Shown here: one piece after another, positions 1 to 64,000 of the stretch | Numbering within the stretch: position 1 is the first letter of the stretch | How the letters are laid out: each line of letters opens with the position of its first letter | Virus genome (UHGV): UHGV-1352889 | Origin: a virus | Direction: 5' to 3' (one strand) | DNA length: 64,000 nt | Position numbers and translations under genes: made by a program | Notes under the pieces: generated by a model | What the model was told of the DNA's origin: nothing | The model's database searches: none | What the model saw: only the letters and a program-made list of their open reading frames with translations

Positions 1-159
1 AAAGTACTGTATATTACGACCAAAGAATATTCACAAACCACTACCCGGCAAATGCGGGATATGGAACGGCTCGCAAGTTGCAACGGCTTTCATATCGTAC
101 CTACCGAACGCGTTGAAGCCTATGCAAATATCCTTGAAGGACAGTATCATACATATTAA
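1..159 (+). CDS. 3' end of an upstream plus-strand gene (partial, hypothetical)
   Basis: Frame 1 is open from the window edge to TAA at 157-159 (…ANILEGQYHTY*); co-oriented with the downstream early gene block. Confidence 0.3.
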   Translation, partial: KVLYITTKEYSQTTTRQMRDMERLASCNGFHIVPTERVEAYANILEGQYHTY

Positions 160-189
160 AGTAAAACCTGATAGAGTATTATCTTTTCT

Positions 190-219
190 CTTAGAACCAA
201 CAAAGAACACTACAAAATT
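190..219 (+). promoter_or_regulatory. conserved early-gene upstream motif (TTAGAACCAACAAAGAACACTACAAAATT variant)
   Basis: Related to the TTAGAAACCTCA…CTCTAnA motif present immediately upstream of the ATGs at 856, 1241 and 1629. Confidence 0.35.
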
Positions 220-825
220 ATGACTGCATTTGACATTGATATTAAGGGCAGGAAACGTGATGAACTTTCCCGCACGGAATGGCTTAAACTCACAAATCAA
301 ATCAATAAACTTCAACCTGCAATCTTTTCTTTTAAGGCAGGTGTAATATCCCATAGGATAGACAGGCCTTCCGAATGGAATGGAGAAGGAACGGTATGTG
401 TTAAGCCGTACATGCGGCCCTACGCAATCGAACTGGAACGCACACACAATGGTGCGTGCATTGTCCGGCTCCACAAGTTGAAGTGGAATGGCACGGTGTG
501 GAAACTTGCGGAAACGGCGGCTCTGACTGTAGGGGATGCTATAGAACTGGCAAAGCACTTTATTGCGGTGGTTAATCAGAACTGGCAGGAAGTGGGGTTG
601 CGTATTGCGCAGGAAGCAGGGGCGGTGGACTTCATGGTGGACGGTAGCCTCACCTATATGCGCTTCCGATTCCTCACACCCGATAAGGAATCCATGAATA
701 AACTTAACTCCATAAAGGTTCGCAAGCTGGCAGAACGTTTCTTCCTCCCCTGCATGGTGAAGTTTACGAGCAACAAATGGCACGATGAATTGAATCTGGA
801 AACCGTGAAGCTCGTACTCCGTTGA
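220..825 (+). CDS. hypothetical protein (201 aa)
   Basis: Protein-like composition; preceded by conserved motif; the overlapping 311-aa minus ORF 31..966 looks like a shadow frame. Confidence 0.5.
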   Translation: MTAFDIDIKGRKRDELSRTEWLKLTNQINKLQPAIFSFKAGVISHRIDRPSEWNGEGTVCVKPYMRPYAIELERTHNGACIVRLHKLKWNGTVWKLAETAALTVGDAIELAKHFIAVVNQNWQEVGLRIAQEAGAVDFMVDGSLTYMRFRFLTPDKESMNKLNSIKVRKLAERFFLPCMVKFTSNKWHDELNLETVKLVLR

Positions 826-828
826 ACC

Positions 829-855
829 CTTAGAAACCTCACATAGCTCTATAGT
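829..855 (+). promoter_or_regulatory. conserved early-gene upstream motif CTTAGAAACCTCACATAGCTCTATAGT
   Basis: Near-identical to motifs at 1210 and 1591; sits in the 30-nt gap between two plus-strand genes. Confidence 0.4.
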
Positions 856-1209
856 ATGACCTCCGAAAAAGAATCTAACGTCGTCATCCTCCGCAAGAAC
901 TGTCTCCACCACATCGGGCGAGCCGATAGGCTTCATGCCTTGTGGAGCATCGTGGAGCACCTCCATTCGGTAGTGGACATTGTTGCCCTCGTAAGCGCAC
1001 TGGTTTGTTTAGGTTATCTCCTTGCCACTGGTGAACTTCTCGTATCGTACCTTACATGGTGCATCATCATCACGGGCTGGTTTGTCTTCCAGCTACTGGT
1101 AGAGTGGGGCATTGACATCATACGCCGACGCCTAAAGCGGCATCAGTTGGAGGCAAATCGCCTCGCCCGTTGCCTTGAAGATATGGGATTCACTCGACCT
1201 ATCTTCTAA
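856..1209 (+). CDS. hypothetical small membrane protein (117 aa)
   Basis: ORF with two hydrophobic helices (LVSALVCLGYLLATG…WCIIITGWFVFQLLV); motif upstream. Confidence 0.45.
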   Translation: MTSEKESNVVILRKNCLHHIGRADRLHALWSIVEHLHSVVDIVALVSALVCLGYLLATGELLVSYLTWCIIITGWFVFQLLVEWGIDIIRRRLKRHQLEANRLARCLEDMGFTRPIF

Positions 1210-1240
1210 TTAGAAACCTCAAAGCACGCTAGAAATTATT
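1210..1240 (+). promoter_or_regulatory. conserved early-gene upstream motif TTAGAAACCTCAAAGCACGCTAGAAATTATT
   Basis: Same TTAGAAACCTCA core; starts immediately after stop codon 1207-1209. Confidence 0.4.
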
Positions 1241-1594
1241 ATGGAGAATTTTGACCTAATACTTAGCCAAGCAGAAACCACAACTGGAAGGAAGCCGTAC
1301 CCCGATAAGCCGAAAGAGCAGGACCCTCTTGCAATCAGCTTCAAAATATCTAGTCGGAAAAAGCGGATGCTACTTTGTCTTCAACAAACAATATCATCAA
1401 AGACTGGAGAAAACATCTTCCCCATACGAACCTATAGGTTGCCCTATTCTATGGTTGTCAAGGATATATTCATTTATCTGTGCGGGTACGTCCCAGATAG
1501 CGTGACCTTCGTAATATCTCGTGACGGCATCTTCCTTTACCTTGAATCCAGTGAGGACGGCTACCCAACTATTCGCTGGAAACTGGATATTTAG
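1241..1594 (+). CDS. hypothetical protein (117 aa)
   Basis: ORF flanked by conserved motifs on both sides. Confidence 0.45.
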   Translation: MENFDLILSQAETTTGRKPYPDKPKEQDPLAISFKISSRKKRMLLCLQQTISSKTGENIFPIRTYRLPYSMVVKDIFIYLCGYVPDSVTFVISRDGIFLYLESSEDGYPTIRWKLDI

Positions 1595-1619
1595 AAACCT
1601 CACATCGCTCTACAAAAAC
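1591..1619 (+). promoter_or_regulatory. conserved early-gene upstream motif TTAGAAACCTCACATCGCTCTACAAAAAC
   Basis: The TAG of TTAGAAACC is the stop codon of the preceding gene; ATG of next gene at 1629. Confidence 0.4.
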
Positions 1620-1628
1620 AAAACAGAT

Positions 1629-2204
1629 ATGAAACCTATCGCACTCGCTCAACAAATCATGCTCCTTCATTCTTGGGCACGGGATAATAATGGTCGTACC
1701 GGAAAACTTGGAAGCCCTATGGTTCTTCCTGCCCATGTCAAGGGAGAGTTCTATATTCCCCGGAACCCGGAGGATAATAGTCTCCAATCTGAACAGACCA
1801 AATTCCAGATTGAATCCTTCGGTATTGGGGAGGTATTCACGTCAGGCATCTTCTTTGCGGTTAGGACACTCTACGACCCGAATGCCTATGAGGATAGAAC
1901 GGTGCGCATCATTCGTCTCAACTACCATAAGGTGAAGCGCGGAGAAAACCATGATTATGCCACCCTATTTTCCTACCATAATTTTTACGCCGTTAGGTAT
2001 AGCAAAACCCTTTACGATGCTATGTTTAAGGCCCGCCCATCTCTTGCCTGCTCCGTTAAATTGGGTTGTATATTTCCTACGGAGCCGGGTGCGGAGATTC
2101 TGTCCATGACGCCTGACCACATGGTGCTTAACATGAGCACGCTATCTAAGGATGAAATCCTCTCACTCCACAAAGATTCCTTCCAATGCAATCTAAGAGT
2201 TTAA
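1629..2204 (+). CDS. hypothetical protein (191 aa; longer ORF opens at 1521)
   Basis: In-frame ATG at 1629 (MKPIALAQQ…) directly downstream of conserved motif; chosen over the 1521 start that would overlap the previous gene. Confidence 0.5.
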   Translation: MKPIALAQQIMLLHSWARDNNGRTGKLGSPMVLPAHVKGEFYIPRNPEDNSLQSEQTKFQIESFGIGEVFTSGIFFAVRTLYDPNAYEDRTVRIIRLNYHKVKRGENHDYATLFSYHNFYAVRYSKTLYDAMFKARPSLACSVKLGCIFPTEPGAEILSMTPDHMVLNMSTLSKDEILSLHKDSFQCNLRV

Positions 2205-2318
2205 CCCAACAATTTCTTGCACTCCTTCGGGTTTCCCGTTTAACTCGGGAGATAATGGAGGAACAGAAAAAAGAATACGAACGAAATCCAAAAAGTTATA
2301 ACCACTACTATCAAGAAT

Positions 2319-2855
2319 ATGTTAGAACCCAAAGACTATCAAAAATATATCGACGAGGACATCAACCCCGGTGACTACATTGTCAGAGAACTGGGTGGAG
2401 AGTATTACGTGGGGAGAGTAGTCGAGCTTTCTCCAAACTTCTACAGATACAAAGTCTTAAATGCTTTCCCTCTGGGTGAGGGGGTTGTCCGTCATGAAGA
2501 AGCAATCAAATGTTACCCTACACCTCTTCGGAAGTTTAAGGAGGGGGACGAGGTAATTTGTAGAGAACATATAGGTAAATGGACTGTAATGGAGGACGAG
2601 AAGGATTCCGTTCTTGTTGGTATTAAGGATAAATGTACAGGAACTATCAAAGCAGTAACCCCTGCCTCTCTTCTTCTCATCAGGCCAATCGACCTGCATT
2701 ATCGGTTCAGAGTTATCGACGGAGCTATTTGGGACTTCAAGAAGAACCAGTCCTTACGTGTCAACCCTTCATGTGAGGGAACAACTGAAATGGAACGTCT
2801 CTGCAATCTTCTGAATGAATTAGACAGAAACGAAGAAACTTCTCTTGACAAGTAA
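2319..2855 (+). CDS. hypothetical protein (178 aa)
   Basis: ORF, protein-like composition. Confidence 0.5.
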   Translation: MLEPKDYQKYIDEDINPGDYIVRELGGEYYVGRVVELSPNFYRYKVLNAFPLGEGVVRHEEAIKCYPTPLRKFKEGDEVICREHIGKWTVMEDEKDSVLVGIKDKCTGTIKAVTPASLLLIRPIDLHYRFRVIDGAIWDFKKNQSLRVNPSCEGTTEMERLCNLLNELDRNEETSLDK

Positions 2856-2881
2856 TAAAACCCAGATACTATTATCCGCAC

Positions 2882-3484
2882 ATGAATAATACTACAGAAC
2901 CAAACAAATTGAGCCTCGATAATATTCAGGAAGAGGTAGCCCGCATTCTCACCGAACCGAAGTCTATCATGTTGAAGGAAAGACTGCAACGGGAGTGGGA
3001 TGCAGTCCCCGCATTCAACCTGCCCATCGACGCGCCTGCGGAGGCGGTTGCCGAGAAGGCTCTTGAACTGGGGGACTACGCCGCCAACATCTTTGATATT
3101 GAACCCCCGCCGCTGGCGGGAGTTCAGTTCATCATGGCAGAAGTCGCCGAGAACCTCGTCACTGTGAAGGAATACATTGCCTTCATGCAGGAGCTTGAGA
3201 ACCCCGGCAAGGCGTGCAATATCTTTACAGATTCCCACGTCATGATTAAGGCACTCGTCCTCTTCATGGCCATTCACCTCTTGGTAGCGTATGCCAGTCA
3301 GAACGACCCGGACCGCATTGATGAAGAGAAGGGAGGCATCTCCGCATTCCGTCTCTTCTCCGTGGCGAGCAATGTAATTTCCATGAACCTGATGGAACAG
3401 TCTACTCTTACCTTCGTAGATAAGTCGGAGCTTGCCGAGAAGGAAGCTAACGCCCGTAAAATTATTCTGCCTCACGAAGCATAA
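2882..3484 (+). CDS. hypothetical protein (200 aa)
   Basis: ORF, protein-like composition. Confidence 0.5.
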   Translation: MNNTTEPNKLSLDNIQEEVARILTEPKSIMLKERLQREWDAVPAFNLPIDAPAEAVAEKALELGDYAANIFDIEPPPLAGVQFIMAEVAENLVTVKEYIAFMQELENPGKACNIFTDSHVMIKALVLFMAIHLLVAYASQNDPDRIDEEKGGISAFRLFSVASNVISMNLMEQSTLTFVDKSELAEKEANARKIILPHEA

Positions 3485-3488
3485 AGCA

Positions 3489-3740
3489 ATGGAAATGACT
3501 AGCGAACAGAAGAAATATCGTAAACTTGTACGGAAAATTATTCGGACAATCTGTAAGAATTTAGTGAAGAAAGCTAGCGAGTATAACACAGTCCCTTTGA
3601 GGATGGAGTATGTTACCTTATTGGAGTTTGTACTTATGCCTCCTTCAGATTGTCACAAGATAGTAGAGAAAGAACTTGACAATCTCATTAGTGAAGGTAT
3701 TATTCCAGTCAGAAAGGAAGACGACAATGGAGATAGGTAA
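3489..3740 (+). CDS. hypothetical protein (83 aa from MEMTSEQ…)
   Basis: ORF 3432..3740; ATG at 3489 follows the stop of the upstream gene. Confidence 0.35.
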   Translation: MEMTSEQKKYRKLVRKIIRTICKNLVKKASEYNTVPLRMEYVTLLEFVLMPPSDCHKIVEKELDNLISEGIIPVRKEDDNGDR

Positions 3741-5721
3741 TCCTAAAAACATGAGCGTGATGGAGTTGGAAGAAGTGATTGCTATCTTCAATAGCTCCTA
3801 CTACAAAGAGGGGAAAACCCTTCTCCCTGACACGGTTTATGATACGCTGGTTGAAGAACTGCGTTCCCGTTCCCCGGAATCCAAGGAACTCGATAGTCTT
3901 GGGGACGACATACAACGGGGAGCCAAGACCTTCCGGCATCCTAATCCCGTGCTCTCCCTTGCCAAGATTCATGAGGGCAAGGACGGAATTGGTATGGACC
4001 AGCTTCGCGGCTGGATTGCCGGACGTGACGTCGTGGTTGAACCGAAGTACGATGGCCTCACCCTCGTTCTGTACATTGAAAAGGGACGGCTCGTCAAGGC
4101 CGTTACCCGTGGCAACGGAACCGAGGGGGAAGTAATCCCCCTTGATAAGGTTCTCTATATGGTCCCGCCAAGTTATGGCAATTACACGGGAGCTATCCGC
4201 GGGGAAGTGGTCGTAGCTAAGAGCGAAGAGGGGCGGGTGGAAAGCATGGGGTACTCCAACCTCCGCGCCTGTGCCGTTGGTCAACTCCGCAACAATAAGC
4301 TCAAGTGGTCTGACTGGCTCATTACCTTCATCCCGTTCGATGCAAGTCCCTTCCCGGAGGGTGTTGAATCCCGCATGGAACTGCATGGGTGGCTGATGGA
4401 AATGTTTGACCTCGTAACCCTCCCCAATGAATGGCCAGAAGGCGAAGCTCTGACAGATGAATACATCCGGGACATGGCCAAGTACCTGCGCGACGACATC
4501 GCATATCCTACTGATGGTATTGTGTTTAAGTTGAACCAGAAGAATGCCATTGCCGCGGCAGGGGAGGCTACCGCCCATCACCCGAAGGACGCGGTAGCCT
4601 TTAAGTTCAACCCGCAGGGAGTTGAAACTACCCTCCGAGATGTCATTTGGCAAGTAGGCAGAACCGGAGTTCTTACCCCGGTTGCTGTCTTCGATACGGT
4701 GAAGATTGGTGGAACCAACGTTTCCCGTGCCACCCTCTCCAACGTGGCTAATGCGGCCTCCTTCCACATTGGTGATACCGTGGAGGTGATTAAGGCAGGG
4801 GAGATTATTCCGTACATCCGCAAGGTTCGCGGCTGTGGCAATACGGTTTCCGTTGTCCCTCTGACCTGTCCCTGTTGCGGCTCCACGTTATCCTCTAGTG
4901 ACCTCAACATCTTCTGTACCAATCCGTTGTGCAGGGATAAGGTAGCGGCCAAGCTGGAATACGCATGCGGTAAGAATGCACTGGACATTGATGGCATGGG
5001 ACTTGTATTCTCACGTATGATTGCAGACAAACTGCTCGCCGGGGAGAATGATGTAGAGCCTCCGACCGCAGAAACTGCTTACCTCCACCACCCGTTCCTG
5101 CTTCTCATGTCCGGCACGATGGACAATCTCATCAACGGAATCCCCGGAACCCAAGGGTACAGAGGATTCCTTGAAATCGTGGAGGAACGGAAGCACCATG
5201 CAACCCTTGCTCAATGGATTACTGCGATGGAGATTCCCCATGTTGGTTGCACCCGTGCGGAAAGTCTCTCCTATGCTTACCCCAATCTCTACTCTTTCCT
5301 CACTCTCTTTCCCGAAGATTTAAGGAACAAGCGTCATGCGGAGTTCGGCCCCCTGATGACCGAGGCAATTCTGAATTACATGGAGACCGTGCCAACGTGG
5401 AACGAGATGACGGCAATGGTTATGACAGGAGATATTCCCAATGCCGAGGGCAATGTTCCCAAGAGCACCGCGTTGCGGGGAGTAAACTTCGTCATCACGG
5501 GAACCCTGTCCCAGCCTCGCCATGTATATAACCTGCTCGTTCAGGACATGGGAGGCACGGTCAAGGAGAACGTGTCGAGGAAGACCAACTACCTTGTTGT
5601 CGGTAAGGAACCGGGGGAGCACAAGCAAAAGATTGCGAGGCTCCACAAGATTCCTTCAATTACAGAAGAAGAATTCATGCAAATGATTAACCCTTCAATT
5701 ACAAATGAAAAAAATTCCTAA
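3727..5721 (+). CDS. ligA: NAD-dependent DNA ligase (LigA-like)
   Basis: N-terminal Ia-like region (ELEEVIAIFNSSYY…PDTVYDTL), adenylation KxDG motif (EPKYDGLTLVLY), Cys4 zinc finger (CPCCGST…CTNPLC), C-terminal BRCT-like segment (VNFVITGTL…YLVVGKEPG); AGGAAG 7 nt upstream of ATG 3727. Confidence 0.85.
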   Translation: MEIGNPKNMSVMELEEVIAIFNSSYYKEGKTLLPDTVYDTLVEELRSRSPESKELDSLGDDIQRGAKTFRHPNPVLSLAKIHEGKDGIGMDQLRGWIAGRDVVVEPKYDGLTLVLYIEKGRLVKAVTRGNGTEGEVIPLDKVLYMVPPSYGNYTGAIRGEVVVAKSEEGRVESMGYSNLRACAVGQLRNNKLKWSDWLITFIPFDASPFPEGVESRMELHGWLMEMFDLVTLPNEWPEGEALTDEYIRDMAKYLRDDIAYPTDGIVFKLNQKNAIAAAGEATAHHPKDAVAFKFNPQGVETTLRDVIWQVGRTGVLTPVAVFDTVKIGGTNVSRATLSNVANAASFHIGDTVEVIKAGEIIPYIRKVRGCGNTVSVVPLTCPCCGSTLSSSDLNIFCTNPLCRDKVAAKLEYACGKNALDIDGMGLVFSRMIADKLLAGENDVEPPTAETAYLHHPFLLLMSGTMDNLINGIPGTQGYRGFLEIVEERKHHATLAQWITAMEIPHVGCTRAESLSYAYPNLYSFLTLFPEDLRNKRHAEFGPLMTEAILNYMETVPTWNEMTAMVMTGDIPNAEGNVPKSTALRGVNFVITGTLSQPRHVYNLLVQDMGGTVKENVSRKTNYLVVGKEPGEHKQKIARLHKIPSITEEEFMQMINPSITNEKNS

Positions 5722-6025
5722 CGAATTTACACGCAACCCCTTCACCTGTCGCCTCATTTTCCGTGAGGCTGGCGTTGCCATCTATGAGCTAACCCATAAA
5801 GGAAGCGGGAAGGTAAACAATTATGAGGTTGTCATCGTCCGTCAGCACAAAGCGGACAATGATTTCATCAAGGTTAAAGCCGGAGATGAATACCTCCCCA
5901 GCACCAGTGAGTGGGGCCAGTATGGATGGACATTCCCCACTCTTGAACTCGCAAACTACAAAGCCAAACATATCATTCATGAACGTTCTATGGATAAATC
6001 AGGAAGTCACACTTCCGCTAACTAA
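5705..6025 (+). CDS. hypothetical protein (106 aa)
   Basis: ORF bridging ligase and thyX; overlaps both ends slightly. Confidence 0.35.
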   Translation: MKKIPNEFTRNPFTCRLIFREAGVAIYELTHKGSGKVNNYEVVIVRQHKADNDFIKVKAGDEYLPSTSEWGQYGWTFPTLELANYKAKHIIHERSMDKSGSHTSAN

Positions 6026-6641
6026 ATCAGTAATAGATAAACAGGTTGAGGCCGCAGAGATAATGGGTCGTATCTGCTATAAAAGCGAACCGAAGGGCGA
6101 CCCCATTGCGTTTCTCTCCCGTATCATTAACCGCGGACACGAAAGTGTCATCGAGCACATCAACATCCCGGCAGTCCTCTCGACGGATAGAGCGGTGACA
6201 CATCAGTTGGTGCGACACAGGCACATGAGCATCAGCATGGAGAGCCAGAGGTACGTCAACTATGACCGGAAGGGAATCATTTGCTTCGTCCGTCCGCAGT
6301 TCTTTAACGACGAGAAGGTTGACCCGAAGACCATTGAAGAGTTTAAGAATACCTGCCAGAACCTTGCGGAGAAGTACGTGGAACTTGTCCAAGGAGGACT
6401 GCCTCCCGAAGAAGCGCGGGGATTGCTTCCGAACTGTACGGCTACGGTGATTGGCGTGACTGCTAACCTCCGCGAGTGGAGGCACATCTTCCGTATGCGA
6501 TTGGACGGTGCGGCCCAGCCGCAAATCCGTGCGCTCCTTCTGGCCCTCCGGCAAAAGATGGAATTGAAGTACGACCTCGCATGGGCATTCAAGGACATCC
6601 CCGTTGATACTAACCGACTTCATTCCGTTCCAGAACTATGA
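5979..6641 (+). CDS. thyX: flavin-dependent thymidylate synthase ThyX
   Basis: ThyX signature RHRxxSxxxxSxRY present as VRHRHMSISMESQRYV; about 220 aa from ATG 5979 (ORF opens at 5823). Confidence 0.8.
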   Translation: MNVLWINQEVTLPLTKSVIDKQVEAAEIMGRICYKSEPKGDPIAFLSRIINRGHESVIEHINIPAVLSTDRAVTHQLVRHRHMSISMESQRYVNYDRKGIICFVRPQFFNDEKVDPKTIEEFKNTCQNLAEKYVELVQGGLPPEEARGLLPNCTATVIGVTANLREWRHIFRMRLDGAAQPQIRALLLALRQKMELKYDLAWAFKDIPVDTNRLHSVPEL

Positions 6642-7243
6642 GCCGTATCAGTCTCAAGAAGTATCGGGAACAGATGGCGGCTAACATGAAAGCCCCAACC
6701 GCGAAGCGTCGAAGAGGAAAGTTCAAGTGCAAGAAATATGGAGATAAATTTTACTGGTATCGAGATAGCCCCGCGGAGCAAAAGAAGTTCTTGAGGGAGA
6801 CAAAAGCTAACAAGCTTCGGTCTCGCATCATGCCTGAACATAAGCAACTTATCCATGCCTCTCTCCGGTCGAAGAAACAACTGACCGAGGAACAACTAAC
6901 CTACGGTCGCATCCTTGCGTCCAATAAAATATCTACTGGTGCAGTTGGAGAAACTACCCCAGATGAAACCCCTAGCTGGATTAAGGAGGACAACTCCTTT
7001 TTCTTCCAGTTTAAATTTCATGGCTATTTCATCAAAGGTGAAGTCCCCGTGGCTCTTGTTGGAAGTTCCTCTGCGGCTCTGGAAATATGCAGGAAGGCGT
7101 ACAAGTTCGCACGGAGAATTACAAGGAAGTGGACAGTCAAAGAAGGATGTTTAACTCTACCCTCTCCCCGCCTCTTCGTCATAGCCAAGATGTCTATTCG
7201 CAAATATATCAACAAACAAATTTACAAGCACCTCACAAAATAG
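6638..7243 (+). CDS. hypothetical basic protein (201 aa)
   Basis: Lys/Arg-rich N-terminus (KRRRGKFKCKKYGDKFYWY); ATGA start/stop overlap with thyX. Confidence 0.5.
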   Translation: MSRISLKKYREQMAANMKAPTAKRRRGKFKCKKYGDKFYWYRDSPAEQKKFLRETKANKLRSRIMPEHKQLIHASLRSKKQLTEEQLTYGRILASNKISTGAVGETTPDETPSWIKEDNSFFFQFKFHGYFIKGEVPVALVGSSSAALEICRKAYKFARRITRKWTVKEGCLTLPSPRLFVIAKMSIRKYINKQIYKHLTK

Positions 7244-7244
7244 T

Positions 7245-7751
7245 ATGCACGCGCACGAAGCAATCAACGCAATCGTTTCAACCAAGGTAAACTCACAGGC
7301 TTTTCCCGACCTGCCGGAAGGAAAGGAATCCATGAACGATGCCGTCAACCACCCGAAGCATTACACCTCCCACCCCAGCGGAATCGAAACCATAGAAATT
7401 ACTGGCAAGCTTCCCTTCGCATTAGGGAATGCCGTCAAGTATTTGATGCGGTCACAGTACAAGAAGGACCGTATTGAAGACCTCAAGAAAGCACGATGGT
7501 ATTTGGAGTACCACGCTAAGCACTGGTCCAAGGTGTTTGAAACGTTTGACCTTTACCTTATCCTTGAACAGTTCAGGCGCACGGTGATGAGCCATAGCTA
7601 CCAACGTAGTCCCGAAGATTCCATTCTGGTACGGCTCTTCTATATCTGGGCGCATGATAAGTTGGTTGAGGTAAACCCCGCATCGGAATTGCAACGATGT
7701 ATCGGCGAGATTACCCAGCTAATAGAATCCCTCGAAGCGAAACAGAACTAA
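7245..7751 (+). CDS. hypothetical protein (168 aa)
   Basis: ORF; last gene of plus-strand block, followed by terminator. Confidence 0.5.
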   Translation: MHAHEAINAIVSTKVNSQAFPDLPEGKESMNDAVNHPKHYTSHPSGIETIEITGKLPFALGNAVKYLMRSQYKKDRIEDLKKARWYLEYHAKHWSKVFETFDLYLILEQFRRTVMSHSYQRSPEDSILVRLFYIWAHDKLVEVNPASELQRCIGEITQLIESLEAKQN

Positions 7752-7758
7752 AACAAAA

Positions 7759-7788
7759 CCCCCGGAAGGAAATATCTTCCGGGGTTTT
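7759..7788. terminator. bidirectional rho-independent terminator (convergent blocks)
   Basis: 9-bp GC stem CCCCGGAAG/CTTCCGGGG with 7-nt loop, A-run upstream and TTTT downstream; lies between the end of the + block (7751) and the end of the - block (7875). Confidence 0.7.
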
Positions 7789-7874
7789 CGCTTAGAACCC
7801 AAACAACTTACAGTCCAAACAGAATGATGTCGTTGCGGATTCTTTATACCATGCAGTACCTATGATGTCAATAC

Positions 7875-8258
7875 CTAACTGACAGGAACTTCGTTTTTCT
7901 CAATGCTCGCCATCAGTTCGGCGAGCTTTTTCTTTCTGGTTTCGAGTTGTTGTTCGAGCCTCTCTATCTCTTTGACGTAATCATGGCACGCATGCTTGGC
8001 CGCATCCTCATAGGTGAGGAAGACAGTGTGGTTGAGATATCCGTTTTCTATGGTTCTGAATCGGTGGTTGATGTATTCGATTCTGACACGGGAAACGAAA
8101 CATTCAAAGGCGACATCAGATACTTCAACGGCTCTCACTGTGGGCATGCCACCGCAATGTACGTTAATGAACACCGTGCATCCCTTATACAGGGGGAGCT
8201 TGCTAGCTTCTTCTGCGGTGAAGGTTTGGTTCTTCATACGGAGGGAAGTATGTACCAA
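7875..8258 (-). CDS. hypothetical protein with C-terminal coiled coil (127 aa)
   Basis: ORF; C-terminal heptad-like IERLEQQLETRKKKLAELMASIEKNE; preferred over overlapping + ORFs. Confidence 0.5.
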   Translation of the reverse strand: MVHTSLRMKNQTFTAEEASKLPLYKGCTVFINVHCGGMPTVRAVEVSDVAFECFVSRVRIEYINHRFRTIENGYLNHTVFLTYEDAAKHACHDYVKEIERLEQQLETRKKKLAELMASIEKNEVPVS

Positions 8259-8933: not shown

Positions 8934-11900
8934 CTACTTCATCCGATTATGAATTTCCTCTGTACTCAATGCCCCATCAATCGGAATGCTACCCTTCTGC
9001 ATGAGGTTGATAATGAGTTGCTTCTGCTCTTCGATTAGGCGTTTGCCCTCGTCCGTGGTATTAGACTTCTGCAATTCACGGTTGAGCTTCGCGATAGCTT
9101 CACGTCCTGCTTGCGGACTAATGACGTAGGGCATGATGCCCTGCATGGCCGCGCCGTAGGTCTTGGCACTCATACCGGAACTCTCAATCACGGAGTCCAG
9201 AACTTCCGAACGGATGGACGGGTCAAGCATGTTTGTAATTTCCGTAACGAACCGGACACTATTGACTAGCTTGGTGAAATTCTTCACGGCATCCGCGGTT
9301 TCCACGGCTTCCATGAGTTCCACATCCATCCCGGATTCCATTCTCTTGTAGAAGTCCGGACGCAGAATGCTCATTCGCTTCGACTTAGTGACCGCCGCGT
9401 TGGCATTCTTTAACCCGGCGGCAAGGGCTTCGGTCAAATCCTTTGGACGACGGAGACCAGCACCGAACGTTTGCAACAAGTATGCCGCGGTACTCATGTC
9501 AGGTGTATCGCTAGCAAATTGTTTACCAGTCTTGACTGCCCAGCCGTAGAAGGGAATCTTTTTATTGGCAACCGTCGCAACTCGTTCAAGGGCTTGCCAT
9601 GTATGTCCACTGCCAAACGAGGGGTTCAGTCCTGCGGCCAACAGGATTGCGTTGCCGACTGCCGGGAGAACGTTGACGCTTTCATCACCGGAGAGGCTAT
9701 GCTTGTAATTGAAGTCTTCCTCATTAAACAATTCAGAAGCGGCATTCAGAAGGAGGGATTCTTCGAGCACCGTATTTTCCAGCAGGTTTTTCAGTTCGGC
9801 AACCTTGTTCATCCCCCACTTGTCCACATCCATATCCATGAAGAGGCTGGGCAGGGTTTTGGCTAACACCTTGATGGTCTTGAACGGGTTCATGTATTCA
9901 AGGTTCAAATACTCGAACTCATGCCGCTTCATATCTATGATGCCAATCAAGTCCCCGAACTTATCATAGTCAGGAATTAGCCCACTGTCTGCCAGCTTCC
10001 TCATGACTTCCGCGTCGTCAATGATTTTACGGTCATCGTCATCTCCCAAGACACTGGTGATAATCTGTCGGGCAAACAAAGAAGAGACCGCAGAGGTTGC
10101 AGAAATAGTTCCTACGGAACCAGCGGCGCGGAGGATAGCGCGTCCCAAGAGGTAAGCCCCCTCCTTCTTCATGCCGTTATTGATAGCCCACACACCATCT
10201 ACCCCTTCGCCTATGGCGTGGCCAAGGTTGTAGACTACGGACTGGGCGGTATGGTACTGGAACATGAAGAACGGAGCCATAACTATGTTCAGGATTTTCA
10301 CCCACGAAGGAGTACGCGAACCCGTGGGGAGCAAGCTCTTCACCATGTGGGCAGTATACCTATCCACATACGCATTCCAACTCTGGTCAGTCTGGCTCGC
10401 GTCAAGGAGTATCTGGTCCCGCGCATTGGGGTTGGCCTTGCCTTTCGCCCGTGCCAGTTGTACCTTTAATTGGGTGTCGGCAATCGCTCTCTGGTTAGTG
10501 AAGAGAACAATCTTGGCCGCCGCGTCCGGCAAGCCATAGGCGAAGGCCATCGTTTTGATGGGCCATGCTACCACTTTGCCCGCCATCTTGGCGGCATCCT
10601 TAGCCACCTCGCCCTTCGTCCGTTCCTGTTTCTCGTTCAGAGCTTCGGCGAGTTTGAAGAAGGAATCTTCATTCACTTCTTCGAATTCTCCTGCCATCTT
10701 ACTGAACTCGTCAGACTTCCAGACGTTGCGCAGGAACTCCCCTTGACCTGCGTCCAGCAGACCAAGCTCTTGCCAGTAGCGAATCTTCTCGTTGTACCTG
10801 TCTTCCGCGGCCAGCAGTCTATCCGCGGAAGCCTGTGAACCAAGGTCCTTGCCTTTGGACAACCGCCGCAACTTACGCAACTGAAGCCAGTCCCCGACAA
10901 GGTTTGCGATGTCTTTACTCCCCGTGAATGGAAGTGCACCCGCATGGGTCATTTGAGCTACTGTACCATATAAGTTACGTAACGTGGAATTAGGACTAGC
11001 TATTAAGACAGAAAGGTTAGCCAAGCTACCCGCCTTACTCCCCCATCCTTGACCCTTGCCGGACTTCTGCCAGTACTTGCGCACCTTCTTATAGTCGTCC
11101 GTCCGACTGTTCATGATGTCGTCGCTCGGCCTGTAGATGTGATAGATGGCGTCGGCTACATCCTTGTCGGCATATAATCCGTTCAACGCATTCTTCGTAT
11201 TCTTCAAGGAGATTTCCACCATGTCGGGGGTACGGTTCGTGCTAGTCGCGGGTACGACTACACCCTGTGCCTTGAGCACGGTGGCGTACTCGTCAGCAAG
11301 CAACTGGTTCACGGCAATCTTCGACTGCATGGATATGGTATTCTGCAATGTCCCAATGGCATCCCCAATGGTGAGGTCGCTAAGTTCATACATAGCTTTC
11401 CTCTGCCATTCGGGCAAGCGTTTCCGCTGGGCCAGCGCATCTTCATTCGTCCTCTTCTTGGTCAGCACTTCGTCGATGGCCTTCATGGCATCGCTCACCG
11501 CAAGACGGGAGAGTTCCGGATATTGCAACACTTTCAAGTCGGTAGCGGAGATGACGTTGCCCATATTGTTTGCCCTCATGAGAATGCCCGCCTGACCCCG
11601 GAGAAGATTGAGCGTCTTGTCCAGTCGTTCTGCGGCATTCATATTCGGAGCGTTCCATATCTGGTCGATGGCCGAAGTCGGGATAGTGGGGATGGCCTTG
11701 TTCACTTCGGAAGCCACGGATGCCGGGGATTCAAGGCCGCCGATTTTGTCGGCAATCGTGTTTCCCGGAAGGCTGGAGAAGACATCGGCGAGGAAACTAT
11801 CTCTGGCTTTCATGTCCAGAGTTTCTTTCATCTCTGCCATCTTTGACTTCGTGCGATAGTCTGCCTGTGCTATCATGCTCATGGCCTTGTTATACATGGC

Positions 11901-14900
11901 ACTGATGTTGTGGCCGTCCCGCAGGTCCGCAAGCATTTGAACCCTGCCGAAGTTGTTCTGAATGAAGTCAAGAATTTCTCTGGTCCTGTAGTTCTTGGCT
12001 ACACCTTCGAACAGGAGTTTATAATTCGAAGAGGCTCCCGGGGGAGCTGACACCAGCGGAAGTTTCAACTCGTCATGGAACGCGGCCAATGCTTGCATGT
12101 TGTCCAGCACTTGGCTTATGTTTTCGGACAACTCTGTCTGGTGCGCTTCGGCATGAGCGATTGCGGCTTCCTGCAACAACTTCGTCAGGCCATCATACTT
12201 CTGTGCCATCTCCCCGTTGGGATGTGCAATGATGTCCTTCATCGTCCGGGTGAAGTCTCCGGCATGGCGACCTACGGCCATGTAGGTGCGATGAAGATAA
12301 TTCATCTCCGCGGCGTTGTTAGCCATACGGCTATCCCCAATGAGCTTGGCAATAGAGATTTGCGTCGCGGCAATTTCTTTACGGGAATCGGCGATGACAT
12401 TGTAGACCAGTTGACCTACAACCCCTTGTGACAGAAGCCATTGTTCCGCGGCATCCCGCTTAGCCATATACTCTGCCTGTTTCTGACGGCGTGCATCGAG
12501 GATAGCGTTGTCCCGTTTCAGCCACACGGAACCAGCAGGAGTAGTTACGCCAGCACGAGTTACACCCGCTCTCTTTGTTGCAGCGTAGAAATCATCGTTG
12601 GCTTCCCGGATGATTTGTTTAGCTTCGGCCCGTGCCCTAGAGATGTCCTGAATCATAGGAGCAATGGCGGGGTGGTTTGTACTCTCCGCATAGAGGTAGT
12701 CGTTGCGAAGGTTGGACCACCTGTCCAGAAGTTCATCCATAGAGAAGGGACTGTCCACCTCGTTAATCATATCCGCGAGGTAGTTCTGCGTATCGCGGGC
12801 AAGACTAAAGTAGGAGGTTTCCAGATTGGCATCCCCTGTCGCGGAGATACGAGAGCCAAGGTCGGAGAGCGATTTGTGAATCTGCTGGGAGAGCATGGGG
12901 AGAGCCACCGTCTTGTCCAGCATGGCCCCATATCCCTTGACGCTCATGTCTTTAATCCGGCGCATCATGTCATTGATTTCCAATCGCCCTTCACTATTAA
13001 GCGCAAGGGAGTTGGCTAGACGCACCGCTTCCGCGTGCCTATTGACGGCATCGGTAACGGTCTTCTTAGCCAACGCGATACGGAAGTCGCGGGTCTGTTC
13101 GTGCTGGCGAACTTCTGCTTGGGCCTCTGCGTTAATGCGTGCAACGGTTTCAGGGTCAATGTCGTTGTCCATATTCCCCGACATGTCGAGAATGGACTTG
13201 CTCCATTTCTTTCGCGTGGCGGCATCCCAGCCCAGACTATCCGCACGGCGTTGAAGCATATCACCGATTTTGTCGATGCGTTTAATACTGCGCTCGTATG
13301 CCGCATTCACGTTGGTCCTTTGTTCCAGCACAATCAGCTTCTGTTCCTCGGACTTAACATTGATGCCAGCTTTGTCCCAGCCCTTAGACACGCCTTGCCA
13401 TACGTTCTTAACACTAGTCACCCAGTTCCCGGCATTCGTACCGATAATCTCTGCACCCAGACCGAAGGACAGTCTTTGGGTCATGTCGGTCTCATAGGCC
13501 AACGGGTTGAAATAATCTACCTCATGGCTCATGGTGTAGTCCGTATCGTCTACTTTCCATGATGGGGTGCGAGGCATATCGAACCACTTGCCGGGGGTTA
13601 TGTCCGCGACGCGGTCCACATAGGAATCCCATTCAGCCGCATTCTTGGCGGCGGTGGTTCCGTCCATGTCGTCCGCAGTTTGCCGCACATCTCTAATCAA
13701 ATCCTTAAGCCATTCAATGAGGCGCACGTGAACGGGTCTCCTGCCCCCAGCCGCTTCGGCATAGCGAGCCAAATCCGTGAGGGTTACATTGTCTCCGCTC
13801 ACCTCCGCAATCATGAAGTTCATGACAGGATTGGAGAACGCAACACTGGCAAATTCGTCCGGGCCACGGAGACCATAGTTGAGGTCGGAGGCAAGCGCGG
13901 CGATGGCATTCATCTCATTGATGTCCACGCTAGCTTCATACATAGCGGTGAGGCTATCAATGAATTGATTATAGTTCTCCGCAACTGCGCTTCTAATCTT
14001 GTCCATCCGCTGGGAGTAGTCCGCGTTAGTGGCACGAAGATGACGGTCAATGAGGTGGATGGCCTCATGCAGTACTGTTCCCGTTACGCTCTCAATCGCA
14101 TTGTCCCGGTCCATGTACAGGTCAATGACACCACCGACAAGCTTCCCGTCTGTTCCGTTCATGTAGGTGATACTGGCGGGGGAGGCTATATTGGCAGGAG
14201 CATTGGTGGCTCGGATAGCCACGTCCAAACCAGCGGCATGCAATGCGCGGAGCACTCCGTCAATGGCCGCGGCCTGTGCAGGAGATGCCTTGACGCGAAG
14301 GTCCGAAAGGATGCCGTAGGCATTTACGCCCGTCCCGTCAGAGGGGAGATTGAGAGCGGAGACCCTATCCCCCCACTTGGTGCTGGGTGTCCCTCCCTCG
14401 CCCATGTTGTACATGCTTGCGTGCGGAGAGACGACAATGGTTTCTCCCGTGTTGCTCGTAACCAGCGGGGCATTAATCCCGGTCATCTCGTTCAAGGAGA
14501 CGAGCTTGGTTCCGCGGTCAAGAGGTGAACCGGATGAAAGCCATGCCCCAGTGTTGGGGTCGAACGAAGTAATGGCGGCATCCAAGGTATCCACGGTTTC
14601 CACGGCTTCGGGGGTAACTACTCCCGTATCTACCATGTTAGTGACGGAGGCAATGGCTTGGTCCCTCTCCTTCCGTGCCGTGAGTTCCGGGGATTCCGTG
14701 GTAGCCGTGGGTTCCGTGGGCACCGGGGATTCCTTGGTAGCCGCGGCTTCCGTCAATCCGTTAATAACGTTAATGGCGGCATCGAGGTCTTCATCTCCTG
14801 TAGTAAGGATGGACAGGTCATCGTCTACTTCGATAACCTGAACCCGGTCTCCCATAGCATCAAGGGCTTCCGAAAGCATGGTGCGCATGGTGTCGAGGTT

Positions 14901-17900
14901 TTCCTTATTTGGGAATGACAGGGTATTGGGCAGGTCGTTAATGGCTTCTGCCATGAATGAGCTTGCCGCGGCACTGCCCTCGTAGGTATATATTTCGGAG
15001 GCCCGTTCCACTAGGTTGCGGAACTGGGTGAAATTGCTGATGCCCATACGGGTTGCGCCTTCCACCCATGCCTTCCGGGTTTCGTCGGAGACAACCAGAC
15101 TTTCATGGGCAATGGATTTGTCCACCCATTCGCGGGCAACTTCCGCGGCATCCCCCTTCTCCCCGGCAATCTCGATAACCTTCTTTCCGGTTTCTACCAA
15201 GCTTTCCGGCACATTGTTTTTGGTAATGGCTTTGCCCGTTTCCTCGATGATGTTGCTCGCATCTTTCGTAATATCCGGTAGCATGGAAGTAGCATCCTTT
15301 ACATCAAGGGTGGGAACGGCTTCGGTTTGGAAACGTATGTTCCCTTCCCCAGCTAACTGGCTACCAACGTAGCCGCCGATACCCCCAAGGAAAGCAATCT
15401 TTATAGCACCGCTAATCACTTGGTCAGTAGTGGCAATAGAGGATTCGGAGATTTCTCCGTTCTTCACCAGTTCAGTAAATGCCCATTCTTGGAATTCGTC
15501 TGCCAGTTCTTCGGTGGCTCCTTCCACTGCGGCCTTGCTCGTGCTGTACAGATAGGAAGCAACGGAAAGCGTCTTCTCCTTGGTAGTCATTTCAGACCAC
15601 GGCTTGCTTCTCCATCTGGCCATCTTCTGTTCAAGGGTTTGGAATGGAGATTGACCGCGAAGGTTTTTAGCTCCAACAATCTTACGCATGTAGGAATCCA
15701 CACCTGCGCGGTTGTTGATAAGCGTACTGCCAGCGGAGACCAGAGCCGCACCAAAGAGGGCACGCCTACTGGCAATGCTCTGTGCCCGGTTCGTGTTCTC
15801 GGCAGTCGGTTCCTTCCCTTCCATCTCCCTGTCATAAATGGTATAGAAGATGTCGGAGTAAGCATTCGGTGCAACCTGCGAGATGATGGTAAGGTTTACC
15901 CCAGCACCAGCTCCCGCCCTTTCAAGGCTCAAGGCCGCAAGGTTATTAAGGTTACGCTGAATAGTTCCACTCAAACGTCCCGCCAATCCCGGACGGGCGG
16001 CAGGGACCAAAGCTTCTGCCCGCTTCGCTACGACGTTAGCCGTTGCCCTCGCGAACTTGGTCAGAGCGGTACGTTCCAATGCGCGGCCAGCAAGGCCACC
16101 GATTTTACCAGCCCCCGCGGTTGCCACCATTTGGTAGCCGAGGTTAGCGATTTCCGCAGTATAGTCTGCAAGGATGTTGCCTCGAACAAGTTCAGCTTCC
16201 GCTTCCTGTTTTTTGTTCAGCTGGTCCCAGAGGGTGCGGGTATGTTCCATCGCCGCACGACTGCCGACTGCATTCTGCGCAAAGAGAAGAGCACCATAGG
16301 CGGCCCCTGTCCCAAGGTCGATGGCTTTGTGCGTGCCTATCTGGAACCCACGGAGAATAGGATTGATGTGAGCCTGTCCTTTCTCCTGCCACGCGGAGAG
16401 AATGTCCTCGTCGCTCTTGCCCGCTTCCTTCTGTTCATTGTAGAAATTCTTGAAGGAAAGGTACTTGTCCAGATACTTCATGCTTTCGGTCCAGATAGGG
16501 TAGACCCGCATGCCGAAACCAAGCCACGTATCATGGAGCGTTCCCAGCGTTTCATCTAATGCAATGTTGTCCTTCACAAGTTCCTGTGCGGATTTCGTGC
16601 GGAGGTTCTGGAACTTTTCAATGGTGCGATTAATGAGACCTTCGTCCGCGCCGCTAGCACGGAGAGCCTCAATGCTCTTGTCCATCAGCTTGTTGTCGTA
16701 GAGAGCATTGGGGTTCAGTTCGAGAGTGGCGTTCGTATCAACTTCCTTGGTGTGCGGGTTGTACGCAAAGAGACTGCCACGGCCTACGCCCAAGTCACCC
16801 ATACGTGCGGCATGGGAGAGGGAGTTGAGGGCATCGCGAGTATTTTCAATATGGTATTGGGCCATGTATTCCTTCAACCGTTCGGGACCTACATCAAAAG
16901 AGGGACCCCCCAGTACGCCATACTCCCATGTGCCACGCCTCGTTCCCTTTCTCCACTCCATTGTACTTAATGGGTCAGAGGTCTTGCCCACACTATCTCC
17001 CGGCTGGAGGGTAAGCACATCCGCAATTTGTCCCCCCGTGCTTCGGTAGTTAGCCATTGCGCCCTTGACCGCATCCATGAGAGTGCCTCTCGGCGTAGCC
17101 TTGGCGACATAACCCTGAATCAGATTGGTTACTCCCGCTTGGTACAGGATGGATTTGGGAACCCCCGGAAACCTTGTAGCCACGGCTTCCAGTATAGCCT
17201 CACTCATGCCAATCTGTTCATCGGTCTCGAAGGTCAGGGGGCGGTCCTTCTTGCGACGAAGGTCCTTGGCAAGAACTTTGGCCCTTGCACGTATTGCGTC
17301 CATGTCAGCATTGGGGACTAAAGACAGAAGGGTAGAGGCCGCGGCTTCCGGATTGAGAATCGCGTCGCGAAGTTCGAGGTAGGGAAGGCCAGTGTAGTCT
17401 TCTTCGAGCCGACGTACCATTTTGTCTGCCGCCTCTATCTGTTCACGAATCCTATCCTCAACAGGCTTTTCTTTCTTTGAAGTTTGATGCCTGGGGATAT
17501 AGATATCACCGTTCCGGGAAAGGTAATCCCCGTAGTCGCGGACAAGCCGGAACATTTTGCTGGGAGACTTAGAGAGGTTGGCGAGTTCAGCAAAAACATT
17601 CCCAGTAAATGAAGGTGCTGAATCAGAGAATTCGCCAACGCCAAGCTCCCCCACGTTCGTCTGGCTGGGGGTTTTCTTCTGCACGTTCTCCGTCGAAGCG
17701 GCTCGGTGCTTATTATAGAGAGACTTAGCGGCACGATAGTTGTCAATGTCTTCGCGCCTAATCGTATTGATGATGCTTTCTATTTCCTCCGCAGTGTAAG
17801 CAATGGGTGCGCTCTCGATGGCTTCTGCTTTAGGTTTACCTGAATAATCTAGATGCGAGTTGAGGTAATCCTTCCGGGCCTTTTCCATTGTGCTGGCAAT

Positions 17901-63796: not shown

Positions 63797-63846
63797 CCCC
63801 TATATCTTGTACGGCATATTGTTGCACGCCCCTATATCTTGCGTAC
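63797..63846. repeat. 14-bp direct repeat GCCCCTATATCTTG ×2
   Basis: Copies at 63797 and 63827. Confidence 0.6.
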
Positions 63847-63935
63847 CTGTAGCGGTGCAATCGGCGTGCGGCCAGTCCTTGCGGATTTGCCGTCAGATAG
63901 TCAACTATCGGACTATCTATCTATCTTCAAAGATT

Positions 63936-64000
63936 GTTAGGCTGGACTTAAAAGTTAGACCGGACTTACAATGTTAGGCTGGACTTAAAAGTTAGACGGC
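63936..64000. repeat. tandem 18/19-bp repeats (GTTAGGCTGGACTTAAAA / GTTAGACCGGACTTACAAT), at least 3.5 copies, truncated by window end
   Basis: A-B-A-B arrangement = 37-bp higher-order unit ×2; runs off the window edge. Confidence 0.8.

Follow-up and report, generated by a model that had tools for sequence, protein, structure and literature searches.

A repeated, strand-biased element before the small early genes of a phage genome: a possible phage-specific promoter that may double as a recombination module

Virus genome UHGV-1352889 was analysed over a stretch of 64,000 nucleotides (the window), which opens with a series of small genes separated by short gaps, and the question raised by this locus is why these gaps carry the same motif. 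A preliminary description, made from the letters of the window, had reported the motif in front of the ATGs at 220, 856, 1241 and 1629, and had proposed a phage-specific promoter, as used by the virion-delivered RNA polymerases of crAss-like phages, or an RNA processing site. We found the quoted sequences in all four gaps, and they are part of a larger motif family of 22 to 27 bases, named S here (coordinates are those of the window unless an L-number, designating another genome, is given). S is a genuine cis element with a fixed direction and under strong constraint, located in the early gene block of a phage that represents a new family. With a probability that we put at about 0.45, it would be a phage-specific promoter with a predicted start at or near its position A22, doubling as a recombination module similar to the promoter-early stem-loop (PeSL) modules of T4-type phages. 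Read in this way, S would be a handle on host take-over: it predicts transcript 5' ends to the nucleotide and could serve as bait for the protein that reads it. It would also delimit a set of ‘take-over’ genes and explain their exchange as cassettes.

S, a constrained and directional element of the early gene block

The exact 12-mer TTAGAAACCTCA is present three times in the window (830, 1210 and 1591), on the + strand only. Together with less exact sites, the following copies were identified:

191 to 217, + strand: looser S copy, TTAGAACCAACAAAGAACACTACAAAA; A22 at 212, ATG 220 7 nt beyond; kept in relatives
830 to 856, + strand: S copy, TTAGAAACCTCACATAGCTCTATAGT / TTAGAAACCTCACATAGCTCTATAGTA; A22 at 851, 4 nt (TAGT) to ATG 856
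1210 to 1236, + strand: S copy, TTAGAAACCTCAAAGCACGCTAGAAAT; precedes ATG 1241, directly 3' of the stop codon TAA 1207-1209
1591 to 1617, + strand: S copy, TTAGAAACCTCACATCGCTCTACAAAA; precedes ATG 1629
7792 to 7815, + strand: degenerate half copy, TTAGAACCCAAACAACTTACAGT / TTAGAACCCAAACAACTTACAGTC; 5' half only (GAA, A12, A14), C18 and CTA lost; below 8 bits with the position weight matrix used below

Some details of the preliminary description have to be amended. The gaps had been given as 27 to 38 nt, which does not apply to the one before ATG 220 (60 nt). The TAG or TAA of the motif was said to double at times as the stop codon of the upstream gene; this is the case at 1591, where TAG 1592-1594 ends gene 1241-1594, and not at 1210, where the TAA lies just outside the motif. 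The looser copy placed at 190 exists and starts at 191, whereas the one placed at 7791 is only the degenerate 5' half at 7792. The latter lies just 3' of a terminator hairpin (7760-7784), between convergent gene blocks and with no + strand gene beyond it, and is probably a relic.

Two degenerate patterns, both built from the very sites they recover, gave four matches each in the 64 kb window, compared with 0.07 and 0.17 expected, all of them on the + strand between 191 and 1614. The window represents most of a genome of about 69.5 kb, as L002 bridges window end 64000 to start 1 via 5.46 kb. In this 69.5 kb composite, a 27-nt position weight matrix detected 10 copies scoring at least 27.7 bits, the next best site scoring 9.6 bits, which is noise level. 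All 10 copies are in + strand gaps of the early block and none is elsewhere in the composite. Within the window there is no copy past 1617 in the early block, the series ending before a sigma70-like promoter at 2845-2872. What the window contains is the downstream third of the family, and the remaining six to seven copies, seen in relatives (e.g. TCTGAAAAGTTACACCGCCCTATAAAA), occupy a stretch of about 4 kb upstream of position 1.

Relatives were retrieved by means of a coding-sequence anchor and not by the motif, so that the sample is unbiased with respect to S. The 25 relatives contain 202 S matches in 63 variants. Every match is on the strand of the early genes, the opposite strand having none; each genome has 10 to 12 copies, one ahead of almost each small early gene. 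The consensus consists of a pyrimidine tract, T-n-G4A5A6, N5, Y11A12M13R14, N2 and R17C18-n-C20T21A22. Two subfamilies, when aligned on CTA, share nnnGAAnnnnYAMRnnRCnCTAnAAAA. Among 111 distinct copies, G4, A5, A6, A12, C18, C20 and T21 are invariant and A22 differs in one copy only, and positions 7-10, 15-16, 19 and 23 are variable. The element is flanked by the pyrimidine tract on the 5' side and by an A-rich run on the 3' side, and G is nearly missing outside the conserved positions. In 18 orthologous groups of copies, invariant positions were polymorphic in 0.125 groups on average, compared with 3.9 for the other motif positions and 4.4 for the flanks.

Homologs of the phage ligase led to sister lineages at about 50% protein identity, in which S is also found. 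L071, L072 and L073 (ligase about 51% identical) carry three to four copies each of CTAGAAyCyTCATAkAACsCTA, with the spacing and strand of S, before orthologs of window genes 220-825, 856-1209 and 1629-2204. L068 to L070 carry TAGAACCAAAGACAACsCTACAA before orthologous genes, with a spacing 1 nt shorter and a TAG that is the stop codon of the upstream gene. In L056, whose giant protein (see below) is 28% identical, only the 5' half TTAGAAyCTCAAC is present, once directly ahead of an ATG; no S-like repeat was found in L057, whose giant protein is 25% identical. The 29 unrelated matches to a 15-mer in IMG/VR showed no similarity to the window and were taken as chance, and no relative of the P0121 lineage was found in IMG/VR.

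Leaders, promoters and the function of S

The position of S relative to start codons limits where a transcript may begin. In L071, L072 and L073, one copy each reads TTCTAGAACCCTCATAGAACGCT|ATG (...AACGCT|ATG), A22 being the A of the start codon; the gene is the ortholog of window gene 856-1209, as confirmed by N-terminal alignment. Any start site must therefore be at or upstream of A22, and in no S copy is an ATG found upstream of A22. The occurrence, extent, strand bias, positional conservation, unstructured nature and cassette junctions of S are observed directly; a role as a DNA-level promoter, a start at A22 and a temporal class are inferred. As a promoter class, S would have an uninterrupted, asymmetric recognition sequence of about 22 bp, with initiation at or beside A22, a pyrimidine-purine step, and each small early (‘host take-over’) gene would possess its own start signal. 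As the S copies are downstream of, and interleaved with, cassettes that carry a sigma70-like promoter (P cassettes, see below), they may represent a second temporal or regulatory class. S could be read by the polymerase of the host, after redirection by an early protein of the phage, or else by a polymerase beyond sequence recognition.

The mRNAs produced in this way would be leaderless or short-leadered (0 to 19 nt, no Shine-Dalgarno-like motif), or would have A/C-rich leaders of 31 to 46 nt, mostly carrying ATAGAAAG. Measured from A22 to the ATG, none of the 19 distinct leaders of 0 to 19 nt has a Shine-Dalgarno-like motif; 31 of the 34 leaders of 31 to 46 nt, which are A/C-rich, have ATAGAAAG 9 to 11 nt ahead of the ATG. 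This leader motif is also present in the sister lineages L056, L068 and L073, and resembles a variant Shine-Dalgarno sequence that could pair with the very 3' end of 16S rRNA (...CCUCCUUUCU, which may not be that of the host). The two classes of leaders are expected if mRNAs begin at S in a phage that favours leaderless mRNAs, and equally if RNA is cleaved at A22. Sigma70-like promoters of this phage have the textbook form TTGACA/C-N16-18-TAnnnT, and six of them are found 4 to 8 nt ahead of an ATG (0.36 expected in the genome), four at called gene starts; leaderless mRNAs are therefore implied. The sites concerned are:

L002 1685-1702, 2190-2206, 3345-3361 and 4621-4639: ATAGAAAG sites in long leaders, 9 to 11 nt upstream of the ATG
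3714 to 3726: AGAAAGGAAG, a variant of ATAGAAAG, before the ligase gene
8883, 35358, 46867 and 49909, - strand gene starts: sigma70-like promoters ending 4 to 8 nt before the ATG
2845 to 2872, + strand: sigma70-like promoter TTGACA-N16-TACTAT, 9 nt before ATG 2882, outside the 4 to 8 nt count

Four to six further sigma70-like promoters are present in the early block, with a GC-rich stem-loop after each (the P cassettes). Four P cassettes of about 125 nt were delimited upstream of the window (L002 560-660, 998-1090, 2547-2635 and 4533-4639); they are composed of an AT-rich stretch, TTGACA-N16/17-TAAACT/TAATTT and a GC-rich stem-loop at the predicted transcript 5' end (e.g. GCGGGG-GACAA-GCCCCGC).

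Several observations weigh against a promoter that starts at A22. In every genome, S is downstream of a sigma70-like promoter with no terminator in between, so the early block could be transcribed without S, and S would then always be present in RNA. About 31 of the 202 S copies are 9 to 10 nt upstream of the -35 element of a P cassette, where a second promoter looks redundant. The 5' half found directly before an ATG in L056 does not suit a start at A22, and the strand bias of S could merely reflect cassette duplication within a co-oriented gene block. No phage RNA polymerase, whether T7-like (Pfam RNA_pol PF00940 or PHROG equivalents), N4-like or two-barrel, and no sigma or MotA-like factor was detected by Pfam and PHROG searches among all open reading frames (ORFs) of at least 290 aa and all early ORFs. 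The giant protein of 3214 aa has no catalytic Asp motif conserved among its homologs, and the AlphaFold2 model of its residues 2441 to 3214 (all-helical, predicted local distance difference test (pLDDT) score of 55.8) was too poor for a fold search.

RNA folds of the 10 S copies with 35-nt flanks gave z-scores of -0.24 to +2.25, with no shared hairpin, and no Rfam match was obtained for S. This lack of structure rules out that S is an attC site, an intrinsic terminator, an RNase III site or a hairpin promoter of the N4 type. The two proposals of the preliminary description, a promoter and an RNA processing site, both stay leading readings, with processing of the hairpin (RNase III) type excluded.

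At the RNA level, S would be a cleavage, 5'-end-defining, stability or protein-binding site in a polycistronic early RNA made from the P promoters, giving rise to single-gene units, possibly with leaderless or short-leader mRNAs beginning at A22. We hold this to be somewhat unlikely, and, if true, it would reveal an unusual sequence-specific processing system. It agrees with the constant location of S on the sense strand and downstream of a P promoter, in a block where no terminators separate the early genes, and with the single copy per gene boundary, the early genes of T7 likewise having RNase III sites between them, one per boundary. The S region is single-stranded and G-poor; the copy in which A22 belongs to the ATG and the short leaders devoid of a Shine-Dalgarno motif suit cleavage at A22 equally; and where S and P form a composite, the 3' terminus of the preceding message would be marked by S. 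However, we know of no endoribonuclease that recognises about 20 nt of dispersed code in RNA devoid of structure, Pfam and PHROG scans of the early proteins gave no nuclease or RNA-binding family, and S shows neither structure nor covariation.

Alternatively, S could be bound by an early phage protein without being a start itself. It would turn the early block on or off (e.g. its later shut-off or the activation of an adjacent promoter) by acting as an operator, as a roadblock, or as a site for an activator or for the loading of an antiterminator. In favour of this, 31 copies are located at a fixed 9 to 10 nt upstream of a P-cassette -35 element, where activators and UP elements act. The asymmetry of S, its length of about 20 bp and its dispersed invariant positions are those of such a site, and many early proteins are uncharacterised, for example a conserved 249-aa protein with a predicted new fold. 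The 3' half CGCTCTA... is in addition loosely similar to boxA, GCTCTT(T)A. This explanation appears doubtful to us, as most S copies have no sigma70-like promoter downstream, the likeness to boxA breaks down in the CACTA, CGCTA and CCCTA subfamilies, there is no boxB-like hairpin, and no DNA-binding domain was detected in the early proteins.

The 249-aa protein (P0250 family, L002 4640-5389) is conserved, and its gene lies directly 3' of a P cassette and immediately ahead of the S cluster. AlphaFold2 gave a usable model (pLDDT 75.5, predicted template modelling score 0.75), composed of a small sheet and long helical hairpins, for which a fold search of the PDB gave no match at E<=0.001. The protein is one candidate for a factor that would act on S.

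Cassette rearrangements at S

The genes that follow the S copies in the window are listed below.

1 to 159, + strand: 3' end of an early gene (109 aa), whose own S copy, TTAGAACCCTCAAATAACTCTAACCAA, is about 210 nt upstream of position 1 (L002 5419-5445)
220 to 825, + strand: early gene (201 aa), no family match; kept in sister lineages, there also after an S copy
856 to 1209, + strand: early gene (117 aa) with a long hydrophobic stretch; the only match is sub-threshold, to MscS_TM (18.3 bits, cut-off 28); a membrane location of the product is our guess
1241 to 1594, + strand: early gene cassette (117 aa)
1629 to 2204, + strand: early gene (191 aa)

Gene 1241-1594 has been lost in five relatives (L004, L014, L017, L034 and L037). 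The junction (1221|1588) is inside the flanking S copies, the 1210 copy forming the left and the 1591 copy the right junction of the deletion. Gene 1629-2204 is duplicated in tandem in L004, L014 and L034, with S ahead of each copy, the 1591 copy being the duplication boundary. L017 has an extra S copy ahead of gene 2319, and upstream cassettes are reordered or duplicated in L014, L022 and L037. Overall, nine of 42 breakpoint clusters are at most 15 nt from an S copy, compared with 4.5% expected; most of the others are at other gene boundaries or at P cassettes.

The PeSLs of T4-type phages are repeated regulatory modules on either side of ORFan early genes, in a hyperplastic region whose rearrangements have their junctions in the repeats (PMC2839356, PMC4122927). 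By analogy, the behaviour of the cassettes described here matches the PeSL mechanism. S and P cassettes can be regarded as homology patches, because the same 20 to 30 nt recur at every gene boundary, and recombination between them would delete, duplicate and reshuffle early-gene cassettes as T4 PeSLs do. S repeats, like PeSLs, flank ORFan genes in a hyperplastic region, with junctions of insertion, deletion, duplication and replacement in the repeats. A PeSL, however, consists of a sigma70-like promoter and a GC-rich stem-loop, and S has neither; the P cassettes (TTGACA-N16/17-TAAACT followed by a GCGGGG...CCCCGC hairpin) are the true structural analogs, and S is a second kind of module.

As deletion and duplication junctions fall inside S and cassettes are reordered among relatives, S might have no role in expression at all. 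It would then be either a scar of recombination or the conserved terminus of a mobile cassette, spreading together with ORFan genes. We regard this as distinctly unlikely. A scar would decay, yet eight positions of S are conserved, shun polymorphism and persist in lineages at about 50% protein identity, while the positions between them vary. Many breakpoints are elsewhere or at unrelated microhomologies (37|201 and 2501|3565), S is neither palindromic nor attC-like, and no recombinase family was found among the proteins scanned (ORFs of at least about 290 aa and the early block, shorter ORFs elsewhere being outside the scan).

Natural deletions that make no use of S were also observed. In L017 (867-890, window 37|201), a deletion by CAAAGAA microhomology removed the 5' half of S copy 191 and fused the upstream ORF in frame to gene 220-825. 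In L002 (8126-8132, window 2501|3565), window positions 2501-3565 are removed without involvement of S.

Known systems, candidate readers and genomic context

S is kin to known kinds of elements, namely phage-specific promoter-like repeats and PeSL-like regulatory cassettes. S has a formal likeness to the class II and III promoters of the T7 group, which are read by a single-subunit RNA polymerase and are also contiguous, asymmetric sequences of about 22 to 23 bp, repeated about 10 times in short gaps before early and middle genes, some overlapping the upstream stop codon; T7 class II promoters are similarly dense. With A22 as +1, the conserved blocks of S would lie near -18/-16, -11/-8 and -4/+1, and some copies contain ACACTATA, as do the SP6 and T7 promoter consensus sequences. 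S is a conserved, repeated sequence of about 20 to 23 bp on the sense strand, as in T7-like phages, and its end at the start site is a prediction. In contrast with the T7 group, no T7-like polymerase gene is present (no PF00940 or PHROG match in ORFs large enough), the likely initiating base is A and not G, and the sequence is otherwise unrelated. Searches for polymerase motifs B and C likewise gave nothing convincing.

Recognition by a sigma factor of the sigma70 family would imply two blocks about 16 to 18 bp apart (13 to 17 bp for sigma32) and a start 6 to 8 nt after the second block. In agreement with the preliminary description, S does not resemble sigma70 elements, having no -35/-10 pair at 16 to 18 bp spacing. 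Housekeeping, extracytoplasmic function (ECF) and sigma32-like factors were rejected, as GAA and CTA are only 13 nt apart and most copies have a TAnAAA hexamer without the final T; nor is a start beyond CTA compatible with the copy whose A22 is the first base of the ATG. The sigma32 consensus (cccCTTGAAA...CCCTATAA), ECF sigma sites, the T4 MotA box, boxA and Type I restriction sites were dropped on the basis of spacing or composition. TAGAAA as a -10 element, prompted by TAGAAT-CTCAAC-ATG in L056, was rejected in view of the upstream subfamily, which has TGAAAA or TGAATA instead. The middle promoters of T4 (MotA box at -30 and sigma70 -10) resemble S in that they form a second class interleaved with early sigma70 promoters, the TnGAA box of S being 12 to 13 bp before TAnAAA. 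They differ in the final T that the S hexamer mostly lacks and in a downstream start that is incompatible with the start-codon copy, and no MotA or AsiA homolog was found here.

Structured elements were rejected as well. The N4 promoter is a hairpin with a stem of 5 to 7 bp and a 3-nt loop centred at -11 (PMC4496689), and S has no inverted repeat. An RNase III-type site, as in the T7 early region, is a long irregular hairpin, which S does not form. An integron attC site is an imperfect palindrome, located 3' in each cassette and used by an integrase; S is not palindromic, and no integrase family was found in the protein scan defined above.

The analogy with the virion polymerases of crAss-like phages, put forward in the preliminary description, is not supported. 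Phage phi14:2 likewise has its small early genes grouped together and encodes a giant protein where its virion genes end, but the early transcripts of its virion polymerase gp66 have no common upstream motif, and there is therefore no crAss-like early-promoter consensus for S to join. No crAss-like signal was detected in the large proteins of the phage studied here, none of which contains DFDxD.

A different precedent is provided by phage P23-45, in which a polymerase concealed in a giant virion protein, the tape-measure protein to which it is fused, reads a conserved motif upstream of 14 pre-early transcription starts (bioRxiv 10.1101/2022.12.01.518664). In both phages, many of the small genes expressed first are preceded by a strongly conserved motif, a giant virion protein is encoded, and sequence searches revealed no polymerase. 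On account of this precedent, a polymerase hidden in the giant protein is possible, and unproven. In contrast with P23-45, the giant protein studied here has HExxH as its only signature, and a two-barrel catalytic motif is not conserved in it; the motif of P23-45, being AT-rich, is also unlike S.

The giant protein is encoded here:

8934 to 18578, - strand: 3214-aa ORF, last gene of the - strand block

A search with this protein gave 400 matches, of which the 120 listed are all 88 to 100% identical, on contigs of up to about 70 kb. An exhaustive HMMER search with residues 1251 to 2450 gave only three distant full-length homologs, indicating a very small family. The DxDxD-like strings DNDID (aa 1804) and DMDVD (aa 2915) are not conserved in P0121, P0122 and P0124, and a profile search of PDB sequences, like those of Pfam and PHROG, gave no match. 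The conserved signature of the family is an invariant HExxH (aa 1504-1508). The protein has Gly/Ala-rich hydrophobic stretches and a helical C-terminus. We would guess that it is a polyvalent virion protein, either ejected or internal, which carries a zincin-like domain; no RNA polymerase can be recognised in it.

A bolder form of the promoter reading is speculative and in our view improbable: a phage-specific transcription system hidden from sequence methods, which would be a new polymerase or a redirection of the host polymerase by an early factor or a virion-delivered modifier, with a promoter of about 22 bp, a start exactly at A22 and (near-)leaderless mRNAs, in a host possibly belonging to the Verrucomicrobiota, e.g. 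Akkermansia. If true, a new polymerase or sigma-redirecting system would add a class of phage transcription machinery.

A host among Akkermansia or the Verrucomicrobiota is plausible, as a weak inference from sequence similarity. The nearest named cellular homologs of the ligase are those of Opitutaceae, Opitutus and Lacunisphaera (Verrucomicrobiota, 30 to 32% identity), and one 30% match is to a metagenome-assembled Akkermansia genome; a ligase scan of the genome collection gave only 25 to 30% matches, in mixed phyla. The G+C content of the window is 51%. Some IMG/VR sample identifiers resemble what we take to be Human Microbiome Project samples.

The phage family is common in public metagenomes and without a characterised relative, and almost no protein can be named. 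No match was obtained in a nucleotide search of window 1-8000 against 50,697 phage records or in a protein search with the 756-aa ORF, and the DNA polymerase A ORF is at most 27% identical to those of known phages. PHROG, Pfam and PDB sequence searches with the 3214-, 963-, 756-, 715- and 612-aa ORFs and all early ORFs gave nothing informative, and no tRNA gene was detected. The 963-aa protein has the look of a structural protein rich in Cys. The only nameable genes are those for the ligase, a Thy1-type thymidylate synthase, a nucleotide kinase, DNA polymerase A, helicases and a PD-(D/E)XK nuclease.

The + strand block extends over about 13 kb from a repeat-rich, origin-like region, and comprises about 20 small ORFs without family match, followed by the ligase, thymidylate synthase and nucleotide kinase genes. 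The remaining genome is on the - strand, with a primase-helicase, DNA polymerase A, another helicase, the nuclease and unrecognisable virion genes, and ends with the 3214-aa ORF. Two further features of the + strand block are:

3727 to 5721, + strand: phage-encoded NAD-dependent DNA ligase
7760 to 7784, both directions: perfect terminator hairpin CCCCGGAAGG...CCTTCCGGGG flanked by T and A runs; ends the + strand early block, convergent with the late block

The origin-like region is between the divergent blocks (L002 1-560, adjoined by window 63831-64000) and contains GGACTTAATAAGTTAGAC repeats, CCCCGGAACC iterons and the palindrome TGTTCCACGTGGAACA. A second patch of iterons is present inside the early block (L002 3910-4110), and analogous iterons are found at the same location as the origin-like region in L056, L068 and L073.

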